Shown here piece by piece: positions 2,880 to 59,640 of a stretch of DNA of 64,000 nt (within the stretch, counting starts at the first letter, position 1; every line of letters starts with the position of its first letter). Where the stretch lies: assembly GCA_030390025.1 (NCBI GenBank), contig CM059433.1:96348001-96412000 (forward strand). Direction: 5' to 3'. The notes under the pieces were generated by a model. That model was given only the letters and a program-made list of their open reading frames with translations. It did not search any database and was not told the origin of the DNA. The position numbers were made by a program, and so were the translations under genes. This stretch comes from Squalus acanthias. Lineage: Eukaryota.

Positions 2880-3672
2880 GGGGTCGATATTAACCCCCAC
2901 ACAACAGGCGGGAGAGGGTCGGGGGGTGGGGGCGCGGTAAAAAATTAAAAATCGTGCCTTGCCACCCCACCCCTCCATGTATGCGCCTGCTGCCATTTTT
3001 ATGGCGGCGAGTTGCGTGCCGTGTCTGTGTCCCATTCTCAAGAAGCAGGACATTTCATTACAATATTTAAATCAGGTTCCCATGGTGCAGTTGGGAGTCT
3101 GATTCATATTTACTTCTGAAAGGCCGGGTTTCCCAGGGCTCGGGAAACCTGGCAACTAAGTGGAGATGGGAGCAGCCAGATCCAGCAGGCAGGTGTTGTT
3201 TATAGCACTGCTTGTGAGCTAGGACGAGCAGGTAAGAGCTCCCTCCAGACCCTGAAGGAGATCTTCTGCCGCAATTGGCCAACAATCCCCCTTCTCCAGA
3301 CCCGCGACCCTGAGCCGTCTGCCCCACAATCTCCCCCTCCCGATTGCCAGTCCGATCCCCACCCTGACCCTCCCCTCTGCCCCACAATCTCCCCCTCCCG
3401 ATTGCCAGTCCGATCTCCACCCCCACCCTCCCCTCTGCCCCACAATCTCTCCCTCCCGATTGCCAGTCCGTCCCCCACCCCCACCCTCCCTTCTGCCCCA
3501 CTGGCTTGCCTGCCCAGCACCAGGCCAGATTGCCAGGGAAACGGAATTAAAAAATGATAATGAGGTTCTGCTGTTAAATCCAGCAGGAAATCTGCGTTCC
3601 TGGGACTTCCAGGATTCCCCCTGTAACCGCACTCCTCTGCTCCCTCCACGCCGCCCCATAAATATCGGGGCC
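2880..3672. mobile_element. Harbinger-type MITE with internal 58-bp tandem repeat
   Basis: Imperfect TIRs GGGGTCGATATT / AATATCGGGGCC with a 3-bp TSD CAT on both sides. It interrupts the CR1. Confidence 0.8.
3318..3500. repeat. 58-bp C-rich tandem repeat, ~3 copies
   Basis: GCCCCACAAT recurs at 3321, 3379 and 3437, with a partial copy at 3495. Confidence 0.9.
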
Positions 3673-17289: not shown

Positions 17290-18060
17290 TATAAGGTTAT
17301 CTGTGTTGTCTTTTGACCTGGAAGCATACAAGGGACAAAGAGCAGAGATGTCTTTATAGTGTTTTTATGAAGTGGAGGTATAGTTCTTTGGAGGGTTGGC
17401 ACACATTTCTGGAGCGTGGCTGAGACCTGGAGGAGATGCTTACTTTGGAGATAACAGAAAAGGTCATGCTGGGTGATGCATGACCTATCTGCCAGCTGTT
17501 GTAAGAGCAAAATCTGGCTTTATCAAGGGAATTACCGATTCTGCTGATTCTTTTGTCATACCAAGTTTGAAGGACACTCATTATGCCAGACTGGGGAAAG
17601 AATCTTAAGGGATTTTCAAGGAGATACGGATCTTTATCTAGGTAGATAATGTTGCTGTTATTATCAGATCGACACATTTACAGGGTGTCAATGAAGAACA
17701 AGCTATGCAGGGGAATTGGCTGAGAGCCCATATTCCCCATGTCCAAGGATTATGCTGTATTCTCCAGAGTTAGACTACGCAATAAAGGTACCTGGAGTGG
17801 GGAAGTTTAGGCCTCATTCATCTTTTGGGAGCTGCAGACAACGGAAACAGTTTCTTGCCTCCCCATAGAAATTTGGAGATACAGATGTCGAGGTTTTGGA
17901 ACAGCCACGTCAAGACCCTCACTATTAGAAGCTGATATAGGTAGAGGAGGTGAGGAAGTACATTCATTTTACTGTGCTTGTCCTCCCGAAGAGCAATATG
18001 GAAATTGCCCTTGAACTTCATCTCTCCCTGGGGGATGAATGCTGAAGGGGCTATGATCAG
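17290..18060 (-). mobile_element. Decayed L1-clade LINE ORF2 fragment
   Basis: KMNVLPHLLYLYQLL...NLDICISKFLWGGKK and ENPLRFFP...TWYDKRISRIG resemble the post-RT region of fish-type L1 ORF2. Confidence 0.65.
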
Positions 18061-18180
18061 AGGGCTAATGCACAGGTTCTTGTCCTCTGGCCCCTCATTC
18101 TGCAGAGATCATGAGAAGCCTCGTGGTCATTGTGGCTGCCGGGCGTATGCACTAGTGAGCACCTTGGCCCACCTCACAGC

Positions 18181-19864
18181 GCCACACACCCGCCAACTCA
18201 ATAGACTGATCAAGACCTTCGATCCAGACCTTCAAAACATCCTACGCGCTCTCATCCCACGTACTCCCCGCGTGGGAGACTTCTACTGCCTCCCAAAGAT
18301 ACACAAAGCCAACACACCCGGACGTCCTATCGTATCAGGCAATGGAACCCTGTGTGAGAACCTCTCTGGATACGTCGAGGGCATTCTGAAACCCATCGTA
18401 CAGGGAACCCCCAGCTTCTGTCGCGACACTACAGACTTCTTACAGAAACTCAGCACCCACGGACCAGTTGAACCAGGAACACTCCTTGCCACGATGGACG
18501 TATCGGCACTCTACACCAGTATCCCCCACGATGACGGCATCGCTGCAACAGCCTCAGTACTCAACATCAACAACAGCCAATCTCCAGACGCCATCCTACA
18601 ACTCATCCGCTTCATCCTTGACCACAATGTCTTCACCTTCGACAACCATTTTTTTACCCAAACACACGGAACAGCCATGGGGACCAAATTCGCACCCCAA
18701 TACGCCAACATCTTCATGCACAAGTTCGAGCAAGACTTCTTCGCTGCACAGGACCTCCAGCCAACGCTGTACACCAGATACATCGACGACATTTTCTTCC
18801 TTTGGACCCATGGCGAAGGATCACTGAAAAGACTACACGATAACATAAACAAGTTCCATCCCACCATCAAACTCACCATGGACTACTCCTCAGAATCGGT
18901 CTCATTCCTGGACACACGAATCTCCATCAAAGACGGACACCTCAGCACTTCACTCTACCGCAAGCCCACGGACAACCTCACGATGCTCCACTTCTCCAGC
19001 TTCCACCCTAACCATGTTAAAGAAGCCATCCCCTATGGACAAGCCCTGCGAATACACAGGATCTGCTCAGACGAGGAGGAACGCGATGGACACCTACGGA
19101 CGCTGAAAAACGCCCTCGTAAGAACGGGATATGACGCTCGACTCATCGATCGACAGTTCCGACGGGCCACAGCGAAAAATCGCATAGACCTCCTCAGAAG
19201 GCAAACACGGGACACAACCAACAGGGTACCCTACGTCGTCCAGTACTTCCCCGGAGCGGAGAAACTACGACATGTTCTTCGCAGCCTTCAACATGTCATC
19301 GATGACGACAAACACCTCGCTAAGGCCATCCCCACGCCTCCACTACTTGCCTTCAAACAGCCGCCTAACCTCAGAAGTACCATCGTTCGCAGCAAATTAC
19401 CCAGCTTTCAGGATAACAGCGACCACGACACCACACAACCCTGCCATGGCAAACTCTGCAAGACATGCCAGATCATCAACACAGATACCACCATCACACG
19501 TGAGGACACTACCCACCAGGTACATGGTACATACTCATGTGACTCGGCCAACGTTGTCTACCTCATACGTTGCAGGAAAGAATGCACCGCGGCATGGTAC
19601 ATCGGCGAGACCATGCAGACACTGAGACAACGTATGAACGAGCACCGCGCAACAATCGCCAGGCAGGATTGTTACCTCCCAGTCGGGGAACACTTCAGCA
19701 GTCAAGGACATTCAGCCTCGGATCTGCGGGTAAGCGTTCTCCAAGGCAACCTTAGAAACACACGACAACGCAAAATCATCGAGCAGAAACTGATAGCCAA
19801 GTTCTGCACTCATGAAGACGGTCTCAATCGGGATCTTGGGTTTATGTCACGATACATGACGTGA
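18181..19864 (+). CDS. Penelope-like reverse transcriptase + GIY-YIG endonuclease (uninterrupted, N-terminally truncated)
   Basis: FYCLPKIHK, GRPIVS, TMDVSALYTSIP, GTAMGTKFAP, YTRYIDDIF, CHGKLCKTC linker, VVYLIRC...WYIGET...RMNEH, GLNRD. Confidence 0.93.
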
Positions 19865-21795: not shown

Positions 21796-21979
21796 GGGAG
21801 GCGAGGACTGCTGGATCCAGCAGGTATGTGTCTTTCCACTTACCTGCTGGATCCAGCGTTCCTACCTCGCCAACTCCCCGCAATCGGACACCCCCCTGAC
21901 CCTTCCGATCGCCCCCCCATGAGGCCTCCGATCTCTAATTCCCCCCTCTGACCCCCGACCCCCGCTCTGGCCACCGATT

Positions 21980-22380
21980 GCCCCTCCGGCCTTCCAGCCT
22001 TCAAACCTCCGGCCCCCGATGCCCCCTCCACCTTCCAACCTCCCCTCTCCGGCCCCCGATCACCCCTCCGGCCTTCTGACCTCCCCTCTCCGGTCCCCGA
22101 TCCCCTTCCGGCCTTCCGACCTCCCCTCTCCGGCCCCCGATCACCCCTCCGGCCTTCCAACCTCCCCTCTCCGGCCCCCGATCACCCCTCCGGCCTTCCG
22201 ACCTCCCCTCTCCGGTCCCCGATCCCCTTCCGGCCTTCCGACCTCCCCTCTCCGGCCCCCGATCACCCCTCCGGCCTTCCAACCTCCCCTCTCCGGCCCC
22301 CGATCACCCCTCCGGCCTTCCGACCTCCCCTCTCCGGCCCCCGATCCCCCTCCGGCCTCCGATCAACCCCCTCCGATCCC
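21980..22380. repeat. 40-41-bp C-rich minisatellite, ~9 copies
   Basis: Unit CCCTCCGGCCTTCCRACCTCCCCTCTCCGGCCCCCGATCAC. Confidence 0.92.
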
Positions 22381-22996
22381 TCCCTCCCTTCCTCCTGTCT
22401 GCGGCCTGATGCCCCAGGCCTACCCACATGCAGCCAGCCAGCTTCTCCCTCTGGCTCCCTGCAGGTGGGAAACAGTGATTTCAAATGCTAATCAGGCCCT
22501 GTTGTTAAATTTGGCAGGGCCTGTGGGAAACCGCATTCCAGCCCCCCGCTCCTTCCCCACCTCCAAATGAAAGTTCCAGCCTTAGTCACTGATTAACTCC
22601 ATTAGGTAAATTTTCACCTTCAGCACTCCCACCACAGAGCTTCATGCACCAGAAGCACACATTGGGAATAAAATTAATGTACAAAAATTTATAGTGGGCA
22701 CACACCTAAATTCCCATTATTAACTTCCCACAAAGCAGCCTTACCACACAACTAACCCACACGATGCCATTTCATTTAGTAGCACACAACTTCCCAACCT
22801 CTCAGCACTACTTCTCAGTTTCCAGAATAAAGCACGTCTGAACCAGAGGATGAACCATGACAATTTTAAACCCTTCACTCTGTATGAACAGGCCACACTT
22901 GATATGGTTATGCCAGAGAACATAGAGGGAATGGGCAAGCTAGAGATTCCACCAAAAAGAGGGCTAGTACAATCCTTTTCTTGCTTTAATTCATCC

Positions 22997-33170: not shown

Positions 33171-34340
33171 TCATGAGATGCACTTTCTGATCAGGCCTTC
33201 ATGCACAGCCCTTGCAGAGGCAACGTTGCGCAGACCCCTCCCACATTGTTGTAGCTCACCCTCCTCTTCCTCGTCCTCCTCGTCCTCCTCTCCCTCTTCC
33301 TCCTCCTGAGGAGGTCCAGCTATCCCTGGTGGCAATGGCTGGGTCCGGAGAATGGCGAGGTTGTGCAGCATGCAGCAGATGACTATGAACAGTGACACTC
33401 GATCGGGGGAGTACTGCAAGGCTCCTCCAGAGTGGTCAAGACACTGGAACTGTCGCTTCAGCAAGCCGATAGTCTGCTCGATGAGGTTCCTGGTGGTGCT
33501 ATGGCTTTCATTGTAGGCGAGCTCACCAGGAGTGTTGGGGTTATGGAGCGATGTCATCAGCCAGGTGGAGAGTGGATATCCCTTGTCCCCGAGGAGCCAG
33601 CCATGAGCTTGATGCGGGGGTTCAAACAGTGCTGGGACACCAGTCTGGCGCAGGATGAAGGCATCATGGCTGCTGCCAGGATAGCGGGCATTCACAGCGA
33701 GGAAGCACTGTCGGTGGTTGCACGCCAACTGCACATTCAGGGAGTGGTAGCCCTTCCAGTTACAGAACACCTCTGCATGTTCATGAGGTGCCCGCAGTGC
33801 CACGTGGGTGCAGTCAATGGTGCCCTGAACCATGAGGAAGCCCGCTATCCTAGCAAAGCCACATGCGCATTCGTGCTGTTTCTCTCGTCTCATGGAGAAT
33901 GAGATGCACTCCCTTCTCCTTCTGTACAAAGCATCAGTGACCTCCCAGATGCAGCAATGGACTGCGAACTGGGAGATGTTCGCAATATCCCCTGTCAACG
34001 CCTGGAAGGAGCCACTGGCATAGAAATTGAGAGCCACTGTCACCTTCACTGCCACCGACAGAGATGTCCTCGTCCTGAGCCGAGGCTCGAGCTCTGGCTG
34101 CAAGAGGTGGCAGAGCTCTGTGACCACCGCCTTGCTGAATCACAGCCTGCTGATACACTGCTCCTCTGAGAGATGGATACATGAGAATTATTGTCTGAAT
34201 ATCCTGGGAGGGTAAGGTCTTGAGTGGAGAGGCCTGTTGGCCCTCCTCCCTCTGCCCACGATTTGCACTCTCTCTCTCCCCCTCCGCTGCCTCCGATTAT
34301 GAAGCTGGAGGTCGAGCCCCCGTGCTATTACAGCCACCAT
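33171..34340 (-). pseudogene. Harbinger DDE transposase with two premature stops near the N-terminus
   Basis: ATG at ~34340, in-frame TAA (~34188) and TGA (~34140), then GTIDCTH, LGDKGYP, IEQTIG, CCMLHN and an acidic tail. Confidence 0.92.
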
Positions 34341-41439: not shown

Positions 41440-43543
41440 ATGGAGAGGGTGAGAGAACGCGCTCATCGCTTCACCGAGCGGGCCTTGGATGCTCTGGTTG
41501 ACGCAGTGGAGCGCAGACGATGCATGCTGTTCCCAGAGAGTGGCAGGAGGCCTTTGCCACGCGAGTTCAGAAGAGTGTGGAGGGAGGTGGCTCAGAGCGT
41601 CTCCTCCAGGAGCATGGTGCCCAGGACCCATGTCCAGTGCCGCAAAAAGTTCAACGACCTCACTCGGGTCGTCAGGGTGAGTGGCTTTTTCTCAATACCT
41701 CTCCATCCCTCCATCTCAACCTCACTCTATGGCCAGAGGGTCTTAAAACCCCAATGCACAACACTCATGCAACACCTATGGCCCTTTCATCAAACACACA
41801 CACACATTCCACACTTTGCATACAGTAAGGGCTATTCACCTATGGGAGGCACATCAGGCAAGACCATGGCTGCATATTGTAAGGGCTATTCACCTATGGG
41901 AGGCACATCAGGCAAGACCATGGCTGCATATTGTAAGGGCTATTCACCTATGGGAGGCACATCAGGCAAGACCATGGCTGCATACAGTAAGGGCTATTCA
42001 CCTATGGGAGGCACATCAGGCAAGACCATGGCTGTATATTGACTCAGATGCTGTCCTTTTTCTTGCAGGCTAAGCTGGCTCATAATCGGAGACAGCAGCA
42101 ACGGACGGGTGGAGGGCGGCTTCAGCTGCAACCCCTCAGCGATCTGGAGGAGCGCGTCCACAGGATTGTGGCAAGCCGGGTGATCGGTCCCGTCGCCACT
42201 GGAGACGCCGACCCCGTTGTGGACAGCAATGGTAAGGTCATCACCTTTTTGTCCTCTGTCCTTCCACTTGTCCCTCACAATACCAGTCTTTGACACTTTC
42301 AATCCAACTTGCTAACTCGCTGCACTTATTCCTCCCTTACTGCCACCCTGTCCTCACGCTAAAGCCACTCTTGTACCTCCCTGCTTTCAGATGGTGATTC
42401 ACCAGCTGAGGAGATGGTCCCTGAAGCTGCCACTGGGAGTGATGCTGCAGCTGAGGAGGAAGAGGAAGCCGGAGCATCAGTGCCACCCTCTCCCGAGGAA
42501 GCCCATGGCCACACTGGGAACACGCCTTCCCCGGAGGGGAGCAGGGGGGAAGGGGCTGATGATGGTGAAGTTCCAGGACCCAGCGGGCTGCAGCAACGCC
42601 ATTGGGGGGGGAGGGAAGAACGGGGGAGCAGGGGGGAAGGGGCTGATGATGGTGAAGTTCCAGGACCCAGCGGGCTGCAGCAACGCCATGGGGGGGGAGG
42701 GAAGAACGGGGGAGCAGGGGGGAAGGGGCTGATGATGGTGAAGTTCCAGGACCCAGCGGGCTGCAGCAACGCCATGGGGGGGGGAGGGAAGAACGGGAGC
42801 CTTCTCCCCAGAGGGAGAGTATGCCAGACACTCCTAATGCAATGGACGCAGAGGAGGAGCGGCTGATTGCAGAAATGAACAGCCAGGTGGTGGTCATGCA
42901 CACTGAGCTCATGGGTGCAGTGGGAAGGGTGCCCGAATGCATTGAGGCACTGGCAAGGAGTGTGGAGCACTTCGCTGTAGCACAGGCGGATGCCACACTA
43001 AAGCTTACTGCTGCAATTCAGTCACTGGCTGCCAGGAACCCATCTGAGCCTGCTCTCATGCAGACTCAGATTGAGGCCACGCGAGCACTGACTGCTGCCA
43101 TCCTCGATGGTTCGTGCACATGTCCCCGGGGCTGTCACCGCGCCGCAGCAGGCCAGCAATCTGTTCTCAGGCAAATTGCTCCGGATGCTGAAGTGCTGCC
43201 CCGTGGGAGTGCCAGTGTGTCGGGCGAGCAGGGAGTTGCTGTCCTCTCTCACGATGACAGCATTCCTGCTGCCAACACTGTCACTTCTCCACTGCACTTG
43301 CCACCGCCTGTAGGACAGACTGCTGCCGCCCATGCAGAGTTGGTGCAGTCTGCAGCCGGGCCCTCCAGGCCCAGAAGTGGTCGAGGCCGTCCTTCAGGGG
43401 CATCTGCAGTGTCAGGGTCTGACAAGCAGCAGCCTTCCACCAGCCTTGCTGCAGCCACTGAGGTCCCATTACGGAGGAGCAGTAGGGTTAGAAGGGGGGA
43501 AGTGCGCAAGGGAAGGAGATCACCCTCGAAGGGCAAAAAGTAG
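41440..43543 (+). CDS. Harbinger Myb/SANT-like protein, exons 41440-41676, 42069-42231, 42391-43543 (one -1 frameshift in a poly-G run near 42690)
   Basis: MERVRERAHRFTERALDALVDAVERRRCMLFP...VWREVAQSVS...QCRKKFNDL. Canonical donors (GTGAGT, GTAAGG) and acceptors (TTGCAG, TTTCAG) with compatible phases 0 and 1. Basic C-terminus. Confidence 0.87.
41818..42040. repeat. 54-bp tandem repeat x4 in intron 1
   Basis: TAAGGGCTATTCACCTATGGGAGGCACATCAGGCAAGACCATGGCTGCATA recurs with period 54. Confidence 0.95.
42536..42797. repeat. 87/86-bp tandem repeat x3 in exon 3
   Basis: GATGGTGAAGTTCCAGGACCCAGC at 42561, 42648 and 42734. Confidence 0.95.
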
Positions 43544-43837: not shown

Positions 43838-44998
43838 CTAGAAGCGGCTTGCTATTAGTCGTTGACGGACGGCCCTTGCAGTTTGACCATTGTGGGCCGC
43901 CCTCCTGCCTTGGTGCTGCTGCTGATCATCGTCCTCGGCCTGTTCCTCCTCTTCCTCCTCCTCCTCTTGTGGTGCTGCAAGGCCTGGTGGCATTGGCTGC
44001 GTCCTGAGGATTGCCATGTTGTGCAACATGCAGCACACCACTACGAATTTGGAAACTTGCTCAGGCGAGTACTGCAGGGCTCCTCCGGAATGGTCCAGAC
44101 AGCGGAATCGTTGTTTGAGCACGCCGATTGTGCGCTCAATAATGTTCCTCGTTGCTTGTTGGCTTTCCTGGTACCGCAGCTCAGCAGAGGTGTTTGGCGC
44201 ACGGAGCGGTGTCATCAGCCAGGTGCTCAATGCGTACCCCTTGTCCCCCAGAAGCCAACCAACTGGCTGATGCGGTGCCTCGAAAATTTCTGCCACAGTA
44301 CTCTGGCGCAGGATGAAAGCATCGTGGCAGCTGCCCGGATAGTGGGCATTGACAGTGAGAATCACCTGTCTGTGGTCACAGACCAACTGCACATTCAAGG
44401 AATGGAACCCCTTTCTGTTCCTGAATTCCTCTGCATTCTCTCGCGGAGCACGCAAAGCCACATGCGTGCAGTCAATGGCGCCCTGCACCATGGGGAAGCC
44501 CGCTACCCTCGCAAAGCCCATAGCACGGTCATGCTGCTTGTCTGGGGTCATAGGGAAGGAGATGAAGTCTCGTCTCCTTGTGAAGAGGGCATTGGTGACC
44601 TGCCGGATGCAGCGATGCACCGCAAACTGGGAGATATTGGCGAGGTCCCCAACAGCAGCTTGGAATGAGCCAGTGGCGTAGAAGTTCAAGGCCACTGTGA
44701 CCTTCACTGCCACCGACAGAGACGTCCTGGACCTCAGCTGAGGCTGCAGATCTGGCTGCAGCAGGTGGCAGAGCTCAGTGACCACCTCCTTGCTGAATCG
44801 CAGCCTTCGCAAACACAGCTCCTCGGACATGTGGATGTAGGAGAGCTGTTCACGATATACCCTGGGAGGGTAAGCTCTCCTGTACATGCGCCTGATGGGC
44901 CTCCTCCGTCTGGCCATCATTGCCACTCTCTGTCTGCGTCTCACTCTCCTCCGATTGAGCTGGAGCAGGACGACGCCCCCAATCATTGCAGCCCCCAT
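43838..44998 (-). CDS. Harbinger DDE transposase (HARBI1-like), 386 aa, intact
   Basis: Uninterrupted ORF with HTH region and [53 protein letters not shown]. Confidence 0.96.
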   Translation of the reverse strand: MGAAMIGGVVLLQLNRRRVRRRQRVAMMARRRRPIRRMYRRAYPPRVYREQLSYIHMSEELCLRRLRFSKEVVTELCHLLQPDLQPQLRSRTSLSVAVKVTVALNFYATGSFQAAVGDLANISQFAVHRCIRQVTNALFTRRRDFISFPMTPDKQHDRAMGFARVAGFPMVQGAIDCTHVALRAPRENAEEFRNRKGFHSLNVQLVCDHRQVILTVNAHYPGSCHDAFILRQSTVAEIFEAPHQPVGWLLGDKGYALSTWLMTPLRAPNTSAELRYQESQQATRNIIERTIGVLKQRFRCLDHSGGALQYSPEQVSKFVVVCCMLHNMAILRTQPMPPGLAAPQEEEEEEEEQAEDDDQQQHQGRRAAHNGQTARAVRQRLIASRF

Positions 44999-46169
44999 CT
45001 TCTCTTTGCCAGAAAAGTAATGAGGTACAGCAACGAAAGTAGCAGCAAAGTTAGGATGAACTAGGCAAAACTACCTCACAAAGCGTTGAGTCAATGTAGA
45101 AGTCTCTCTCTCTCTCTCTCCGAATCTCTCTCTCTCTCTCAGAACGAGTGGTGCATAAATGTCGACCACAGAAAAAGACAGGAAGAGGCCCCCTTTAAAT
45201 AGCGCCCCCCCCAGCCCCAGACCGATTGATAACGTTCCAGTCTTCCGGTCGTTGGAAGCGCCAGGCGGTAATGCAGGGGGCGCCACTCAATTTCCGCTCC
45301 GGGGCGCCCCAAGGGCGTTGCACCACGGACTGACGTCACAATCTGCGCGCGCAGGTGGTCGCAGCGGTAAGTTTTAGCGCCGCCGCACAATCTCAAGTTA
45401 AGTTCTCGAGCGGCGCAAACAGCGCTGCGCCCGGGCGTTAGCGCCTTAACGCCCCATTAGCGCCCATTTAAGGCGCTAACGGGAGGCGCAACCAACTGAA
45501 TTTTTACCCCTTGAGCTTTTTAAGTTTGTTAAAATTGTGACAATTGGAAACACTTCAATAACTCGTGTGTGGCATTCAATAAGATTAATTTCAACTGGGT
45601 AAGGTAACACTGAGAAGAGATGCCTGCAATATATACCTCCTCTATCCTTGGCATGATTGCACTCCTGTTCTCTTCACTTCAAGACCTAAACCTCTCTCTA
45701 GCTCTTCTTACCACCATTACCAGCTTCACTACAAGCTCTCCAACTGTTTCCTGATTCCAACATCCTGAAGGTATTTTTCATACTTTTCAATATTTTATTT
45801 TGTTTCTTTATGCCTTTTGATTTTGTTTCTTTAATCCCTATTTCCAAAATAAATATTTTCTTCTGCCTCTAGCTGCCTTCTGTCTCCCAGTCAAAAAGTG
45901 GCTGTGCGCTGTGAGCACGTAATTTAGGAAGTAACAAAATCAAAAGATTGATTTCAAAATAAATATTTGAATACCAACCTTCCCCACTTCCGGGCCCTAC
46001 TCTTTTTGTTGTGCCTGCCCGTTTGTTTTTTCTTTCTTGCTGCCATCCTGCTCCACTCTCAAGACCTTCTCCAGAGGCCATGCTGGTCTATTGATTTTTT
46101 TTTCGTACGCACACATCGTGGCCCCACAAAAGGAAATCTGTGGCCAGAAATGTCAAAGTCTCTTTTCAT

Positions 46170-51075: not shown

Positions 51076-51213
51076 TCACAAGGGTAGTCACTTGGGTGCT
51101 TTCATATAAATCAATGTTACGTTTGTGTTATTTTATTTTATTGTATTAAAATAATATCATGTGAATGTTTCAATGCGTTGCAAGGGGTGAGGGCGCCTTT
51201 CATCTGTAGCAAT

Positions 51214-51407
51214 TGTCGTAAGAATGAGCCTTACGCGTGGTGAACTTAAAGTAAGCTTTAATCAACTAAAAAGGTGCTACATACAAAAGAGGTCTTACTC
51301 TATGCCTCTCTAGGATCCAACTGATCAGCCCAGTATTTATCCTGGACTAATCACAGGAAGTGATGTAATAAAGTTCAAGTCACAGGAAGCTGTATTGTGT
51401 TACCACA
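51214..51407 (-). repeat. 3' LTR
   Basis: Matches 56816-57009 with two mismatches seen by eye. Confidence 0.97.
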
Positions 51408-51547
51408 TTCTCCCCCCCCAAAAGATTAGGAGGCCGGGATGAAGTTCGAGTCACAGGAAGCTGTATTGTGTTACCACATTCTCCCTCCATTTCGTAGCCG
51501 CTGGACGAGGGAGAGCCGCACCCGTTTGGGTTCTCGTAGCAGTAGAG

Positions 51548-52855
51548 TCAACATGGATTTACAAAGGGTAAATCGTGCTTGACTAATCTATTGGAATTTT
51601 TTGAGGGAGTAACGGGTAAAATAGATGGGGGAGAGCCAGTAGATGTGGTGTACCTGGACTTCCAAAAGGCCTTCGATAAGGTCCCACATAAAAGATTAGC
51701 ATGGAAAATTGAAGCTCATGGGATAAAGGGGAAAGTATTGACGTGGATAGAGAACTGGCTGTCAGATAGAAAACAGAGAGTTGGAATAAACGGCTCATTT
51801 TCTGAATGGCAGGCAGTAACAAGTGGGGTACCACAGGGATCTGTCCTGGGTCCCCAGCTGTTCACAATTTATATTAATGACCTGGATCAGGGAGTCGAAT
51901 GCAGCATTTCCAAATTTGCAGACGACACTAAACTAGGAGGGGGGGTGGGCTCAGAGGAGGAGACCAGGAAGCTCCAGAGCGATTTGGACAGACTGGGTGA
52001 TTGGGCGGATAAATGGCAGATGCACTATAATGTGGACAAGTGCGAAGTTATCCACCTTGGGTGCAGGAACGGGAGGGCAAATTATTATTTAAATGGCAAT
52101 AAATTGGGAGAGGGGGAAGTACAGAGAGACCTGGGTGTTCTTGTACACCAGTCACTGAAGGCGAGCATGCAGGTGCAACAGGCGGTCAAGAAGGCAAACG
52201 GTATGCTGGCCTTCATAGCAAAAGGGTTGGAATACAGGAACAGGGATACCTTGCTGCAGCTGTACAGGGCACTGGTGAGACCACACCTCGAGTACTGTGT
52301 ACAGTTTTGGTCGCCTCATCTGAGGAAAGATGTTCTTGCCATGGAGGGGGTGCAGCGGCGATTCACCAGGCTGATACCAGGAATGGCGGGATTGACCTAT
52401 GAGGAGAGACTATGTAGTTTAGGGATGTACACACTGGAGTTTAGAAGATTGAGAGGGGACCTCATAGAAGTGTATAAAATTCTGACAGGTCTAGACAGAT
52501 TAGATGCAGAAGGAATATTTCCCTTGGCGGGTGAGAACAGAACTAGAGGACATAATTTAAGGATAAGGGCTAAACCATTTAGGACAGAAATGAGGGGGAA
52601 TTTCTTCACTCAGAGAGTGGTGAACCTGTGGAACTCATTGCCACAGAGGGCAGTGTACGCCAGCTCATTAAATATATTTAAGAGGGAATTAGATATATTT
52701 CTACAGGCAAAAGGGGTTAAGGGTTACGGAGAGAAGGCGGGGACGGGATACTGAATTGAAGGATCAGCCATGATCTCATTAAATGGCGGAGCAGGCTCGA
52801 AGGGCCGGATGGCCTACTCCTGCTCCTATCTTCTATGTATCTATGTATCTATGTA
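51548..52855 (+). mobile_element. Young 5'-truncated CR1 inserted antisense in the 3' end of Gypsy pol
   Basis: TSD AGTAGAG (51541-51547, 52856-52862) and a (CTATGTAT)n tail. Confidence 0.95.
51579..52754 (+). CDS. CR1 ORF2 reverse transcriptase C-terminal part (open, no native start)
   Basis: LDFQKAFDKVPH, SGVPQGSVLGP, SKFADDTK, RPHLEYCVQFWSP, TRGHNLR. Confidence 0.92.
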   Translation: MTNLLEFFEGVTGKIDGGEPVDVVYLDFQKAFDKVPHKRLAWKIEAHGIKGKVLTWIENWLSDRKQRVGINGSFSEWQAVTSGVPQGSVLGPQLFTIYINDLDQGVECSISKFADDTKLGGGVGSEEETRKLQSDLDRLGDWADKWQMHYNVDKCEVIHLGCRNGRANYYLNGNKLGEGEVQRDLGVLVHQSLKASMQVQQAVKKANGMLAFIAKGLEYRNRDTLLQLYRALVRPHLEYCVQFWSPHLRKDVLAMEGVQRRFTRLIPGMAGLTYEERLCSLGMYTLEFRRLRGDLIEVYKILTGLDRLDAEGIFPLAGENRTRGHNLRIRAKPFRTEMRGNFFTQRVVNLWNSLPQRAVYASSLNIFKRELDIFLQAKGVKGYGEKAGTGY

Positions 52856-55800
52856 AGTAGAGGGCCCCTAGCCCGTTTACCCGCCGCGGGCCGTGGACCA
52901 GAGTCCGAGTGATCCAGCCCGCTCTGTGAGGGGTCAGGACGATCCTGACTGTGTACTGGTGCCCGAACGGGTGTCGGGCAGGGCTGTGGCAGATCCGTTT
53001 CCGAGCGTATGGTACGGGGTGGATCGTGGCTGCGCGTGCGAGCCCCGACGGGCTCATAGTCAGTCTGCCCCAGGTCGGCACGCTGGAGTGAGGTACCAGC
53101 CGGCGTCAGATCCAGATCGTGATGAGAGGCACCTGGCGAGCCCAGAGATGTGCCTGGTACAATATCATCCCCTGGTGTCCCTCTATGTTTCGGCGGGCAG
53201 GGAGCCAGATCCCGCAATGACACGGTAGATTCCCGACCGTCAGGATACCGAATATAGGCGTAGGTAGGGTTGACGTCAGTGAGCTCAACCTCATCTACCA
53301 GGGGGTCATTCTTAGACGCCCGAACATATCTTCGGAGTAGCACTGGTCCCGGTGCAGTCAGCCACGACGGGAGAGATATCCCATAGGATGAGCGACGCTG
53401 AAATCGGAAGAACCGTTCATGAGGCGTCGTATTTGTGGCGGTCGAAAGGAGGGACCGTGTGGAGTGTAATGCGTCTGGAAGTACTGCTTCCCATTGCTGG
53501 TTGGGTAGGCCCCGAGATCTCAAATCCAGACATACCGCATTCCAGATGATAGCGTTAAAACGCTCGACTTGCCCATTCCCGACCGGATGATAAGGCGTCG
53601 TTCTGCTGGCAGCAATACCCCGTTCTGAGAGATAGGCCTTGAGTTCTCCTGACATAAAAGAAGGGCCCCGATCCGAATGAACATAGGATGCCATGCCACA
53701 GAAAGCAAATACCTGCTCAAGGCAGCTGATAACCGTGGTCGTCAGCATATTGGGGCAGGGAAAGGCAAACGGAAAACGGGAATACTCATCGACCATGGTC
53801 AATAGATAAGTGTTGCGAGTTGAAGAGGGCAACGGCCCCTTAAAATCGATGCTAAGCCGTTGCATTGGCTGGGTCGCATGTATGAGTATACCACCCGAGG
53901 GGCGGAAAAACTGAGGTTTCAATTCCGCACAGACTCTGCAGTCCGAGCACATCTTCTTTACATCCCCGGTAGAGAATGGGAGATTTCGGGACCGCACGAA
54001 GTGTAGCATGCGAGTAACGCCCGGATGACACAACCCATCATGGATGTCTACGAGCGTAGAGGGTGCCATGGCGGAGCAGAATGCTCGTGTGAGGGTTTCC
54101 GGAGCCACATTCTCCTTGCCAGGTCGATAGTGGATGGTGTAACCAAAAGAGGCCAATTCCAGCCGCCAAAGCTGGATTTTATTATTTTTAATTTTGGTCC
54201 GTTTTCGATTATCGAGCATGAAGGCGACCGATCGCTGGTCCGTGATTAAGGTAAAGTGCTGGCGAGCTAGGAGATGAGTCCACTTCCGTACTGCCTCTAT
54301 GATGGCTGTAGCTTCTTTCTCGACTGGAGGATAATGTAGCTCAGCCCCTTGAAAAGTCCTGGACAAAAATGCCACCGGACGACCTTCCTGATTCAGAGTG
54401 GCCGAGATCGCCACCTCCGAGGCATCACACTCAACAACAAAAGGAAGACTCTCATCGATGGAGTGAAGAGCCGCTTTCTCCAACTGTTTTTTCAGGATGT
54501 TAAAGGCTGCAACAGCCGCTGTGTCTAGTGGGAATGTGCTGGCCTTCAGTAGAGGTTGGATTCGGTCCGAGAAGTTAGGAATCCATTTAGCATAGTATGC
54601 AAACAGGCCGAGGGCCCGGCGCAAGGAGGCCGGATTCTTAGGTGGCGGGAGTTCTTGGAGTGGGCGAAGCCTTTCAGGGTCAGGTTTAATGATGCCATTG
54701 CCCACACAATAGCCAAGGATGTTGATGGTTGGTTGTGACTCAATGGATTTAGCCGCATTTAATGTCAAATTACGGTGCTGGAGTGCATCCCAAAATCGTT
54801 GGAGATTGGCGTCATGTTCCCGCTGATTGCGACCTGCGACAGTAATATTGTCCAGATAAGGAAACGTATCCTTTAAGTCTTCCTGTTTGACCAGGTCATC
54901 CATTGCTCGCTGGAAGACAGCCACTCCATTAGTGACCCCAAAGGGGAGGCGACGAAATTGATACAGCCGTCCATTGGCTTCAAAGGCCGTATACTGCTTG
55001 TCTGAGACCTTCAAGGGTACCTGATGATAGGCACTTTTCAGATCATATGTTGAGAACACCGTGTACTCAGCCAGTTTATTAACCATATCATCGATGCGCG
55101 GCAATGGGTATGCGTCCAAGTCCGTATATTGATTGATGGTCTGTGAATAGTCAATGCACAGCCGTTTCTTGTGAGGTTGTAGAGGGTTCTTAACAATAAT
55201 GACCTGGGCGCGCCATGGCGACGAACAAGGCTCGATGATATCCTCTGCTAAAAGCCGAGAAATCTCAGCCGCAATAAAAGACTGGTCTTCCTGACTGAAA
55301 CGTCGTGACTTTATTATAATCGGTTTGCATCGAGGAGGGATACTGGTAAACAGTGAGGGTTCATCCAGTGAAGCTGCTGACAATGCACAGAACGGTAATC
55401 GAGGTCGTATATTAGAAATAGTGAGTTCAGGTTTGGATCCGCCGAACTCAATGGTGAGCTTCTTATGCTGCTTTTGAAAATCTAGCCCAAAGATAAGATC
55501 ACTACATAAGTCCTTGAGCACCGAAAGCCGGGTGGAGGGATACCTGTGACCATTAAGTGTTATTTCAACCATACAGAAGCCAGAAATTCTGGTATTAAGT
55601 GATGACTGAGCCATCGCAATTGCCTGGTCCGATGGGAAAACATGTAGCTTTAACTCTGCAACAATCTGTTCCCTAATGAAACTATCAGTGCTACCTGAGT
55701 CAATTAAGGCATCTAAAGTATGTCCATTAATTGATGCTTTTGTAGCTGCATGGAATAGGTTCTGAGGACAAGCAGCTGTAATTGGTGTCGTTGCACAAAG

Positions 55801-56737
55801 AGTGGCTGAAACTCTAGGTGTGTTTCTTCGAGAGAAAACCCGAGAGGAAGCACGATAGATTTTAGCCGGAACATCTTGATAGGCCCTTACCGGGGCAGTT
55901 CGGTAGGACTTAGCTTGATAAGCCCTCGTAGAGGCTCTTGATAGGCAAACCTTTGCAAAATGACCCTTTTTGTTGCAATGACTGCAAAACGCATTGCGAG
56001 CAGGGCAGAATTTCCGAGGGTGAAACTCATCACCACAAAAGAAGCATTTCTTAGATTGCCAAGAGGCTGCCACAGTGGGGTTATCATCCTCTTCATCAGT
56101 GAAGTCATCAGATTGATCGTCAGGGATAAAGTCCTCCCTAATAGAGTTCACCTGTGGCCTCTTAAATTGCCTGACTGTAGTTAAGGCAGCAGACCGAGGT
56201 CTGGGCACTGTATAAAGGTCTGCATTTCTTTTTGCCAGATCTAGAGAGCAAGCCATGTCATAAGCTCTCTGAAGCTCAAGTGTCTTACTTTCCAGTAGAC
56301 GCTGGCGTATAAATGGGGAGGCAAGCCCGCAGATGAAAGCATCACGGATCATTTCTTCACGGTACAGCTCAGCTGAGGCCGCCTGAAAGTTACAGTCCAT
56401 ACTAAGTCTGCGAAGCTCTTGGAGGAATTTATCAATGGATTCCTCCGGCCCTTGTTGGGCTATAGCTAGTAGATGTCTGGCATAGACCTCATTCGGTGTC
56501 TTAGTATATAGTCTTTTAAGCGTCCGAATTGCCTCCTCGTAACTGCCCCCATTCCTCGACATACTGAAATACATTCGGGGTGACACAGTTGATGAGTATC
56601 CGCAATTTTGAGTCATCATCAGCCTTGCAATATTCGAGAAAATTGTCAAACGTGCGATACCAGTGTTTCCACACCTTACCGGCTGCTGGGGTGTTTGGGT
56701 CCAAGTCAAGACGCGATGGTTTAAGGATGTTTTCCAT
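52856..56737 (-). pseudogene. Gypsy gag-pol polyprotein; frameshift near 56548, C-terminus cut by the CR1
   Basis: Gag start MENILKPSRLDLDP (56737) shifts frame at a G run. Then two Cys/His knuckles, protease LIDSGS, RT YDLKSAYHQ...PFG...YLDN, RNase H ECDAS/EKE/TD, integrase HHCC and IDFKGP...SDRG...GQVE. Confidence 0.94.
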
Positions 56738-56815
56738 GATGGGTGATTCCCTGGATCCTTAGTTCCGAGTTCGTCCAAAAAGTTTGAGTGCGAAGTTTTT
56801 CAAAGTTGATTAAAT

Positions 56816-57009
56816 TGTCGTAAGAATGAGCCTTACACGTGGTGAACTTAAAGTAAGCTTTAATCAACTAAAAAGGTGCTACATACAAAAGAGGTCTTAC
56901 TCTATGCCTCTCCAGGATCCAACTGATCAGCCCAGTATTTATCCTGGACTAATCACAGGAAGTGATGTAATAAAGTTCAAGTCACAGGAAGCTGTATTGT
57001 GTTACCACA
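56816..57009 (-). repeat. 5' LTR
   Basis: TGTGG...CGACA on -. Contains TATA-like GATAAATA and ATTAAA. Confidence 0.97.
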
Positions 57010-57124
57010 GCAATGGTGGTGAAACTGCTAGGAATGCACAGATCATTGTAGGGATGCTCTATGGTGTGGAAGTGGGGTCATGCGAACCTTCATGTGCATG
57101 TGGCAGCCACATGTCTGCGCTGCC

Positions 57125-58805
57125 TAAAGTTAGTTGAATCTGCCATGGATTAGGCCATCCCTTGCCTGACGGGCAGCAATGAGCTCTCATGCTGATCGCA
57201 CTGGGTCAGCCGCCTCCTCCAGGTGTTCCTCATCTGCAGCAACATTTGGCTCTTCCTCCTCCTCTTCCTCCTCCTCCTCTGAAGAGGCTGTGCGCTCTGC
57301 GACCTGTTCCTCAGGCAGCGCTAATCCCCGCTGCAGTGCGATCTTGTGCAGGGCACAGCAGAGCACGATGATTCTCGAGATCCTGACTGGTGCATACTGT
57401 AGGGCTCCACCAGATCTGTCCAGGCATCTGAAGGCATTTTGAGCAACCCTATTGCTTGGTCTATGAGAGTTCTGGTGGAAATGAGGCTCTGATTGTAGCG
57501 CTCCTCAGACTCGTTTGAGGGCCTCCTCATCGGCGTCATTAGAAAGAAAGAAAGACTTGTATTTATATAGCGCCTATCACGACCACCGGACGTCTCAAAG
57601 CACTTTACAGCCAATGAAGTACTTTTGGAGTGTAGTCACTGTTGTAATGTGGGATAAGTGGCAGCCAAATTGCGCACAGCAAGCTCCCACAAACAGTAAT
57701 GTGATAATGACCAGATAATCTGTTTTTGTTATGTTGATTGAGGGATAAATACTGGCCAGGACACTGGGGATAACAACACTGCTCTTCTTCGAAATAATGC
57801 CATGGGATCTTTTACATCCACCTGAGAGAGCAGACGGGGCCTCGGTTTAACGTCTCATCCGAAAGGCGGCACCTCCAACAGGGCAGCGCTCCCTCAGCAC
57901 TGCACTGGAGTGTCAGCCTAGATTTATGTGTTCAAGTCCCTGGAGTGGGACTTGAACCCACAATCTAGCCACGTCTTCAGAGGATAGCCCTTGTCTCCAA
58001 GGAGCCAGCCAGAAAGTTTGTTTGGCGGAACGAAGAGCTGAGGCACAGTGGACTGGCGCAGGATGTAAGAGTCATGGCAGCTGCCAGGGAATCTCGCGCA
58101 AACATGCATGATGCTTTTCCTATGGTTACACACCAGCTGGACGTTAAGGGAGTGGAAGCCCTTGCGGTTCACATATACTGCTGGGTTGTGATGGGTTGCC
58201 TTGATGGCCACATGTGTGCAGTCGATGATGCCCTGCTTCCGTGGGAAGCCAGCCAGATTGACAAAGCCTAGCTCCCGCGTGGTAAAACTTGCTTCATCAG
58301 TTGAAAAGTGGATGTAATTTGCAGACTTGGCAAAGAGGGCGTCGGTAACCTGCGTGATGCATCTGTGGGCGGCCGACTGGGAGATGCCGCTAATGTCTGC
58401 TGCTGATCCCTGGAAGGACCCTGAAGCAAAGAGGTTGAGTGCAGTGGTGACTTTGACAGCCACTGGTAAGGAATGTCCATCCACTCCTCTGGGCTCCAGG
58501 TCTTGGTGCAGCATTGTGCAGATGCCTACGACTACCTCTCGCGAAAGTCTCAGCCTCCTTTGGCACTGCTGCTCAGTCATGTTGAGGAAGCTCATCCTCT
58601 GCCTGTAAACCCTGTGTTGTGGGTATCTCCTGTGGCGAGGTGCAGCTCTGCGCTGATGCCCTCTGTCCTGTGCAACATCCGGTGGCTGAGGAGAAGGTTG
58701 GCGCTCTTTTTGTTGATGCTGCTGGTGTGCCTGTTTATGCTGCTGCCACGGCTGATCCTCTTCCGATTCTGAGGACCAGGGTGTGAGAGTATAAATCATT
58801 CCCAT
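57125..58805 (-). pseudogene. Harbinger transposase interrupted by a SINE
   Basis: [30 protein letters not shown] | SINE | MTP...TRTLIDQAIGLLK (third catalytic E changed to D), then a frameshift and an acidic tail. Confidence 0.93.
57543..57965 (-). mobile_element. tRNA-derived SINE (DeuSINE/SacSINE1-like), 5'-clipped
   Basis: B-box GGTTCAAGTCC on -, L2-like 3' end GGCGCTATATAAATACAAG with a (TTTC)n tail, 3-bp TAG duplication. Family name is from recall. Confidence 0.85.
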
Positions 58806-59640
58806 TCTGCTGTTACATATGGCAGTTGAGGAAGAGATGTTATCAACAGTAAGTCAATGGGGAGAGAGCTTATTCCGAGGAGGTGACAGTGCATATAGAG
58901 TTCACAGCACACACTCACAACCTCAATACAGCTCAAAGGTGTCTTCCAAATCCTGAAATCAGCAACTTCAGACATTTGAAAGTGAACTGATGTGAGGGGT
59001 TAGATTTTATTCAACAGTTGCGGCTGTGAACTATTCAGCTCGTTGGAAGACCCGACACATTCAGCTGGCATGTTTGCCGAACGACGTGAAACACGTTGAG
59101 AATGTGTGAAAATGGAACATGGCTGGCAAAATAGCAGTTAACAAGCTGTTAAGTGCTGTTAAGTGCCTCTCCCGCCGCTTGGTGTCAGGTCTGTTCTGAA
59201 GGCGCAGTCCCAACACTTTGGAAACTGGCGTGGAGGTGGGTTTGCAGCGGGTTCCCAACCTACCGTCAATCATTTTGAATTTAATACCTGACCCACCTCC
59301 GAACCCACCCTCTGAGTGCCGGCAAAATCGTGGCCAAAGTATTTGTTTAATTTCTCTGCCATTTCCTTATTTGCCATTATAATTTCTCCTGTCTCAGCCT
59401 GTAAGGGACCCACATTTACTTTTGCTAATCTTTTCCTTTTTACATAGCTGTAGAAGATTTTACAATCTGTTTTTATGTCTCTTGCTAGTTTACTCTCATA
59501 TTCTATTTTCCCTTTCTTTATCAATTTCTTCGTCCTCCTTTGTTGAATTCTATAATCCTCCCAATCCTAAGGCATACTACTCTTTTTGGCAACATTATAA
59601 GCCTCTTCCTTTGATCTAATACTATCTTTAACTTCTCTTG

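Follow-up and report, generated by a model that had tools for sequence, protein, structure and literature searches.

The Ty3/gypsy retrotransposon described here lies on the minus strand of a 64,000-nucleotide stretch of Squalus acanthias DNA (hereafter the window). It likely uses a segment of its own long terminal repeat (LTR) as the primer for reverse transcription, and the sequence leads us to predict that this segment, the LTR arm, lies at or near the 5′ end of the element's RNA. We assign this reading a probability of roughly 0.7, and consider self-priming of some form to be very probable. The 11-nt pairing between the arm and the primer-binding site is real and is conserved across the clade to which the element belongs. 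As far as the literature was searched, the proposed mechanism is a known one (Tf1-like self-priming) that is new in its lineage, its RNA fold, and its unusual reverse transcriptase (RT) active site.

The element has the TG...CA LTR ends, target-site duplication, and polypurine tract by which Ty3/gypsy LTR elements are recognized (Table 1). Only two differences separate its 194-nt LTRs, which lie inside the 5-bp duplication ATTGC, and the insertion is therefore judged to be young. This copy is broken near position 56550, because the start of gag is in a different frame from the rest of the polyprotein. Pfam matches to the polyprotein follow the gypsy order of protease, RT, RNase H, and integrase, and its closest relative of solved structure is Ty3 Gag-Pol. 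An initial sequence-only reading of the window had noted no evident chromodomain, and this was borne out, as none is among the nine Pfam families found on the polyprotein. The same reading described the gag protein as Mag-like. The two CCHC knuckles of gag are indeed present, and the likeness to Mag is a resemblance that we presume from them. The 3′ end of the element also holds an inserted LINE piece, which we take to be CR1-like and which carries a short tandem-repeat tail.

Table 1. Features of the element, in positions of the window
Feature	Position	Strand	Basis
5′ LTR, 194 nt, TGT...ACA	56816..57009	-	LTR pair comparison
3′ LTR; own copy of arm at 51257-51267	51214..51407	-	LTR pair comparison
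Target-site duplication ATTGC (5 bp), left copy	57010..57014	-	
Target-site duplication ATTGC (5 bp), right copy	51209..51213	-	
Polypurine tract	51408..51419	-	
LTR arm AGTTGATTAAA, predicted self-primer; ATTAAA at 56859-56864 inside	56859..56869	-	complementarity, covariation
Primer-binding site TTTAATCAACT, complement of arm	56804..56814	-	complementarity
One-base spacer A, LTR end to primer-binding site	56815	-	junction sequence
Short hairpin directly after arm, at predicted cut site	56846..56858	-	folds; enriched over 20 relatives
Predicted hairpin at U5 end	56817..56838	-	fold; no enrichment across relatives
TATA-like GATAAATA in U3	56936..56943	-	pattern match
gag N-terminus, starts 56737, other frame than rest of polyprotein	56552..56737	-	tblastn, ORFs
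Long frame: rest of gag (two CCHC knuckles), protease, RT, RNase H, integrase	52849..56799	-	ORF, Pfam
RT active-site motif YLDN instead of YxDD	54847..54858	-	translation
LINE piece inserted in reverse orientation; flanking 7-nt repeat CTCTACT	51548..52855	+	ORFs, domains, repeats
Additional purine run and copy of LTR's first 40 nt, just before true polypurine tract	51439..51491	-	

Read on the minus strand, the 5′ LTR ends in TTACGACA and is followed by the spacer A and then by TTTAATCAACT, which is the exact complement of AGTTGATTAAA within the same LTR. The perfect match is exactly 11 nt long, and an ATTAAA lies within the arm. When the LTR was dinucleotide-shuffled, a complement of at least 11 nt to the first 20 nt past the LTR appeared in 15 of 20,000 shuffles. 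Only two of the 3,199 minus-strand 20-mers of the window complement the LTR this well, the site itself being within the scan. The primer site of this element has no TGG, no tRNA gene was found within the window, and no Rfam family matched positions 56700-57020. The perfect complement, the one-A spacer, and the missing TGG on which the sequence-only reading had been built are thus confirmed. The fold of the 80-nt leader taken alone is only modestly stable (z = -1.9, equalled in 9 of 200 shuffles), and the case consequently rests on covariation among related elements.

Relatives were sought with the protein sequence, which gave 1,192 matches at E 1e-50 or better among the 7,999 candidates scored. 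Most of the 120 relatives among the matches listed consist of one frame of about 1,200 amino acids, and those that are named come from shrimp, a copepod, a nematode, a tunicate, a mussel, and a cnidarian. Two CCHC knuckles are present in 85 of the 92 proteins longer than 1,150 amino acids, and the chromodomain family PF00385 was found on none of the 120 relatives. An alignment of 67 of 121 proteins was then used to retrieve loci, and the best 80 of 510 that were confirmed among at least 600 matches were taken. The junction between LTR and leader is visible in 31 of these, 45 lack the 5′ end, and the remaining four (L028, L069, L072, and L073) were left out because the gag start was matched with no LTR before it. 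Scans of viral contigs revealed no relative, and a search of the ESM Atlas with the gag of one relative returned only generic Gag/CCHC clusters.

Every one of the 31 loci with a junction pairs with its own LTR at 10 or 11 of 11 positions, even though 19 different primer-site sequences are represented. Scored on the 5′ LTR, 21 loci are perfect and seven have one flaw. Three were scored on the 3′ LTR: L046 (11 positions), L078 (10), and L013 (10 of 10 visible); the 5′ arms of L046 and L078 pair at only 9 of 11. Many of the 31 loci are copies of one family or come from the same assembly, and about 20 families are represented. The integrases of these families are 47-72% identical to that of the present element. 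In L076 the LTR is only about 84 nt (1373-1456) and the arm is very different, yet it pairs at 10 of 11 positions. The L056 element, a minus-strand copy in which part of pol is inverted, pairs arm and site across 19 nt.

Covariation was measured in an alignment of this leader with 19 relatives, or 20 leaders that provide 219 cells in the 11-bp helix. The helix is paired in 99.1% of these cells, compared to 81.4% in shuffles, and changes on both sides of a pair account for 33 cells where 6.6 are expected; neither value was reached in any of 500 shuffles. Seven of the 11 pairs change on both sides, and sliding the partner out of register lowers pairing to 22-51%. Each arm matches its own site at 10.7 of 11 positions on average and the sites of other families at 7.5, a difference not matched in 200,000 permutations. 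Even between L009 and L011, which are 98% identical, one change in the helix is matched on both sides. Two of the five covariation measures are weaker (12 and 61 of 500 shuffles). All cell counts overstate the number of independent events, because the loci are related and many come from shared assemblies. The sequence-only reading had named covariation of the primer site with the LTR segment across related families as a check of its proposal. The helix passes it, which strongly supports self-pairing independent of tRNA in a Gypsy lineage that lacks a chromodomain.

The number of different sites also bears on whether the primer could come from the host. A tRNA, a tRNA half, or another small RNA might start DNA synthesis, with the match to the LTR being secondary, and priming by half-tRNAs has been reported for some copia lineages in the available text of PMC6317226. 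Such an RNA would have to track 19 site sequences that each match their own LTR, and a TGG begins the primer site in none of the 20 aligned leaders. We regard a host primer as highly improbable. Slimmer still is the chance that the inverted repeat is a by-product at the level of DNA, such as quasi-palindrome template switching or an integrase or promoter motif, and has no role in priming. In L078, arm and primer site are separated by 44 nt (3438-3481) that are inverted in the 5′ LTR relative to the 3′ LTR, from which it follows that the arms can recombine or be mis-assembled. However, families with integrases as divergent as those above keep the repeat at the primer position, while the loops between arm and site vary from 24 to 70 nt and no other primer site is present. 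The L078 junction itself resembles a primer joined to minus-strand U5 DNA, although recombination that inverts the stretch between the two repeats, or a mis-assembly, would look the same.

The position of the helix suggests how the arm could serve as a primer. Only one base separates the LTR end from the site, whose first base pairs with the 3′ end of the arm, so that an arm extended from a free 3′ end would copy directly into U5. The last three bases of the arm are a nearly invariant A in the 20 aligned leaders. In 18 of them the arm starts at an AG, 11 nt ahead of its end and usually after a pyrimidine- or T-rich run. An AG in this setting resembles a transcription initiator. A hairpin directly after the arm, at nucleotide 12, is also enriched among the relatives, with 90 bp summed over the set versus 57 ± 5 in shuffles, none of 300 of which reached this value.

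A TATA-like GATAAATA is located at position 67 of the LTR, 74 nt ahead of the arm, and the sequence-only reading had cautioned that a box some 70 nt upstream might not be compatible with pairing of the RNA 5′ end as in Tf1. We give this concern little weight, since only 3 of 20 relatives have a TATA-like pattern within the 60 nt that precede the arm and the families share an initiator-like AG and an 11-nt core, the length known from Tf1. In another arrangement, the RNA starts tens of bases upstream, for instance downstream of the TATA-like box, and the primer is not its extreme 5′ end. Priming would then come from a longer cut fragment, or from a second RNA copy through the arm in its 3′ R region, with only the last 11-19 nt paired. 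Consistent with a longer primer, 16 of 20 relatives pair upstream beyond the 11-nt core (the stretches range from 10 to 18 nt), and pairing over the six further positions 5′ of the AG amounts to 65% versus 49% in shuffles. The TATA-like box of this element is likewise on its side, as is a mild enrichment of splice-acceptor-like sites 5-47 nt before the arm (11 of 500 shuffles, in the U3 of 29 LTRs). By contrast, this element (exactly 11 nt), L036, L040, and L052 have no more than 10 or 11 nt of perfect match. In addition, plus-strand synthesis would copy an unpaired tail, and we expect this to hinder the second transfer, while polyadenylation would not leave a 3′ end at the arm. Priming from a processed 3′ R region, which the sequence-only reading had raised, receives no support here, and the longer or 3′-derived primer as a whole is unlikely. 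Since bases ahead of the AG also pair more often than in shuffles, not every family can start precisely at the AG. Under the favored reading of an arm at or near the RNA 5′ end, the alignment suggests a primer whose 3′ end is fixed, whose 5′ end may vary, and which may exceed 11 nt.

The acceptor-like site of this element lies at 56879-56890 on the minus strand. As a speculation, such U3 sites could serve a gag-only RNA through the 3′ LTR. A primer built by splicing was rejected as a candidate, since the primer site pairs with unspliced LTR sequence and no conserved splice donor was found; the best two donors, each within codons under coding constraint, are shared by 8 of 22 and 8 of 25 loci. 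Contigs from four sequencing runs over 52900-57030, which as contigs give neither starts nor ends of RNA, contain no joint in the two runs that we guess to be RNA, and all ten joints that were seen come from one DNA run at low depth. Sequence nearly identical to 52900-57010 of the window occurs in 19 sequencing runs (half or more of words) labelled as coming from seven organisms. The summed contig depth over this interval is very high in one DNA run, and a second variant of the LTR is seen in three runs.

Because ATTAAA lies inside the arm, the main function of the helix could instead be to conceal the poly(A) signal of the 5′ LTR, as HIV reportedly does, with some other, unseen primer starting DNA synthesis. 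The sequence-only reading had offered masking as a further or alternative purpose. An ATTAAA or AATAAA is present in the arm in 10 of the 20 aligned leaders, and the nearly invariant A bases at the end of the arm agree with such a role. The other 10 carry no canonical signal there, however, and pairing is kept in all 20. Masking also needs no partner fixed one base past the LTR end, and it leaves the missing tRNA site unexplained. As the purpose of the helix, masking is therefore improbable, although it may be a side effect.

The following sequence of events would account for self-priming by the arm. Transcription would start at the first A of the arm (56869), with a shift of a few bases upstream where a family pairs over a longer stretch, and the RNA 5′ end would fold back onto the primer site. 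The RNase H of the element would then cut after the last A of the arm (56859/56858), where the hairpin begins. Extension of the freed 3′ OH across the spacer A into U5 would yield minus-strand strong-stop DNA. If the primer were left attached and copied in the plus strand, as the unremoved primer of Tf1 is said to be, the site would be re-templated from the LTR. Such re-templating would itself produce matched changes and a variable pairing length.

Most comparisons are with the Tf1/sushi group, whose members, including Tf1 and Tf2 of Schizosaccharomyces pombe, Tj1, and Tosmo1-3, share the Ty3/gypsy domain order with this clade. In the excerpts available from PMC7175516, PMC4600332, and bioRxiv 10.1101/2022.12.06.519325, these elements likewise lack a tRNA site and have an 11-nt LTR segment that complements a site past the 5′ LTR. 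The first 11 bases of Tf1 RNA pair with the primer site, and RNase H cuts between bases 11 and 12 (in the portion of PMC7175516 available). The Tf1 primer helix is flanked by two required side duplexes, forming a three-duplex “pretzel” (as outlined in bioRxiv 10.1101/2022.12.06.519325). In our 20 leaders the side duplexes are not enriched over shuffles (89 versus 88 and 119 versus 117), and the hairpin at nucleotide 12 is found in their place. This clade further differs by the absence of a chromodomain from the integrase C-terminus, by its two CCHC knuckles, and by an RT site that reads D-N rather than D-D in most of its proteins. Its named relatives occur in crustaceans, a nematode, a tunicate, a mussel, and a cnidarian. 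These are groups for which the available text of PMC2774666 reported in 2009 that chromoviruses are absent, namely cnidarians, molluscs, protostomes, and basal deuterostomes. Without a chromodomain or a pretzel, and with hosts such as these, the clade was not filed under Tf1/sushi.

Self-priming has also been predicted from sequence outside the chromoviruses, for the plant TAR copia lineage (Houba and Osr-1), as well as for Tcn1 (per the accessible part of PMC6317226). TAR belongs to Ty1/copia and Tcn1 to a chromovirus clade, whereas the present families form an animal gypsy clade without a chromodomain. Skipper of Dictyostelium, fungal GalEa, and bivalve TRIM elements similarly have no TGG, and unconventional primers have been proposed for them; the LTR of Skipper is said to contain no complementary stretch (partial texts of PMC5006619 and PMC6934838). 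The hairpins of GalEa and TRIM are in the inner domain in these accounts, whereas here the complement lies in the LTR and covaries.

Cigr-1 of Ciona combines LTRs of about 245 bp with a single frame of about 3.6 kb, and its gag resembles those of sea-urchin elements. These properties fit the short LTRs and single frames of roughly 1,200 amino acids seen here. On this resemblance, the clade may be the Cigr-1 clade, which the available section of PMC6238403 lists as present in molluscs.

The partial texts consulted associate self-priming with Tf1/sushi, Tcn1, and plant TAR copia and make no statement on the primer of Cigr-1 or of Mag elements (PMC6317226, PMC3601003, PMC5006619, PMC6934838, PMC8220671, PMC5341516, PMC6238403, PMC12471100, PMC4600332, PMC7175516, PMC2774666, PMC3670739, bioRxiv 10.1101/2022.12.06.519325). 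Among the titles and texts that were searched, no paper described self-priming for an animal gypsy clade outside the chromoviruses; an earlier account may exist in Repbase, GyDB, the original Levin, Butler, and Cigr-1 papers, or the supplements of PMC6317226 and PMC6238403. We give even odds to the broader proposal that self-priming arose independently in this large and widespread clade. That proposal would include a fold of its own (the 11-bp helix and a cut-site hairpin, with no pretzel), an RT that mostly lacks the third active-site aspartate, and a primer site rewritten from the LTR in each cycle.

An animal clade that self-primes without a chromodomain would bear on which of the two came first, priming by tRNA or by the element itself, as asked in the available text of PMC3601003, and on how often self-priming was reinvented. 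We would expect such elements to escape control by tRNA fragments, and finders that depend on a tRNA site would overlook them. Exact predictions of start and cut sites also follow from the covarying families.

The RT active site carries D-N in 89 of 121 proteins and YLDD in 21, and 11 do not match the pattern. In the available part of PMC2148107, a Ty1 D211N mutant polymerizes DNA but does not transpose. The present element bears YLDN and inserted recently, although the same change blocks Ty1 transposition according to that account. It therefore offers a natural YxDN polymerase for comparison with the Ty1 mutant. The papers listed in a literature search on this reverse transcriptase motif were unrelated.

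Several other features of the window were also recorded. A 636-amino-acid frame at 17954-19864 (plus strand) has an RT domain, and its C-terminus looks to us like a GIY-YIG nuclease; this frame is probably a Penelope-like element. Three frames with DDE_Tnp_4 transposase domains, which we take to be Harbinger-like, lie at 33171-34139, 43838-45070, and 57924-58853 (minus strand). Tandem arrays of units of about 41 nt and 54 nt occupy 21941-22385 and 41817-42086.
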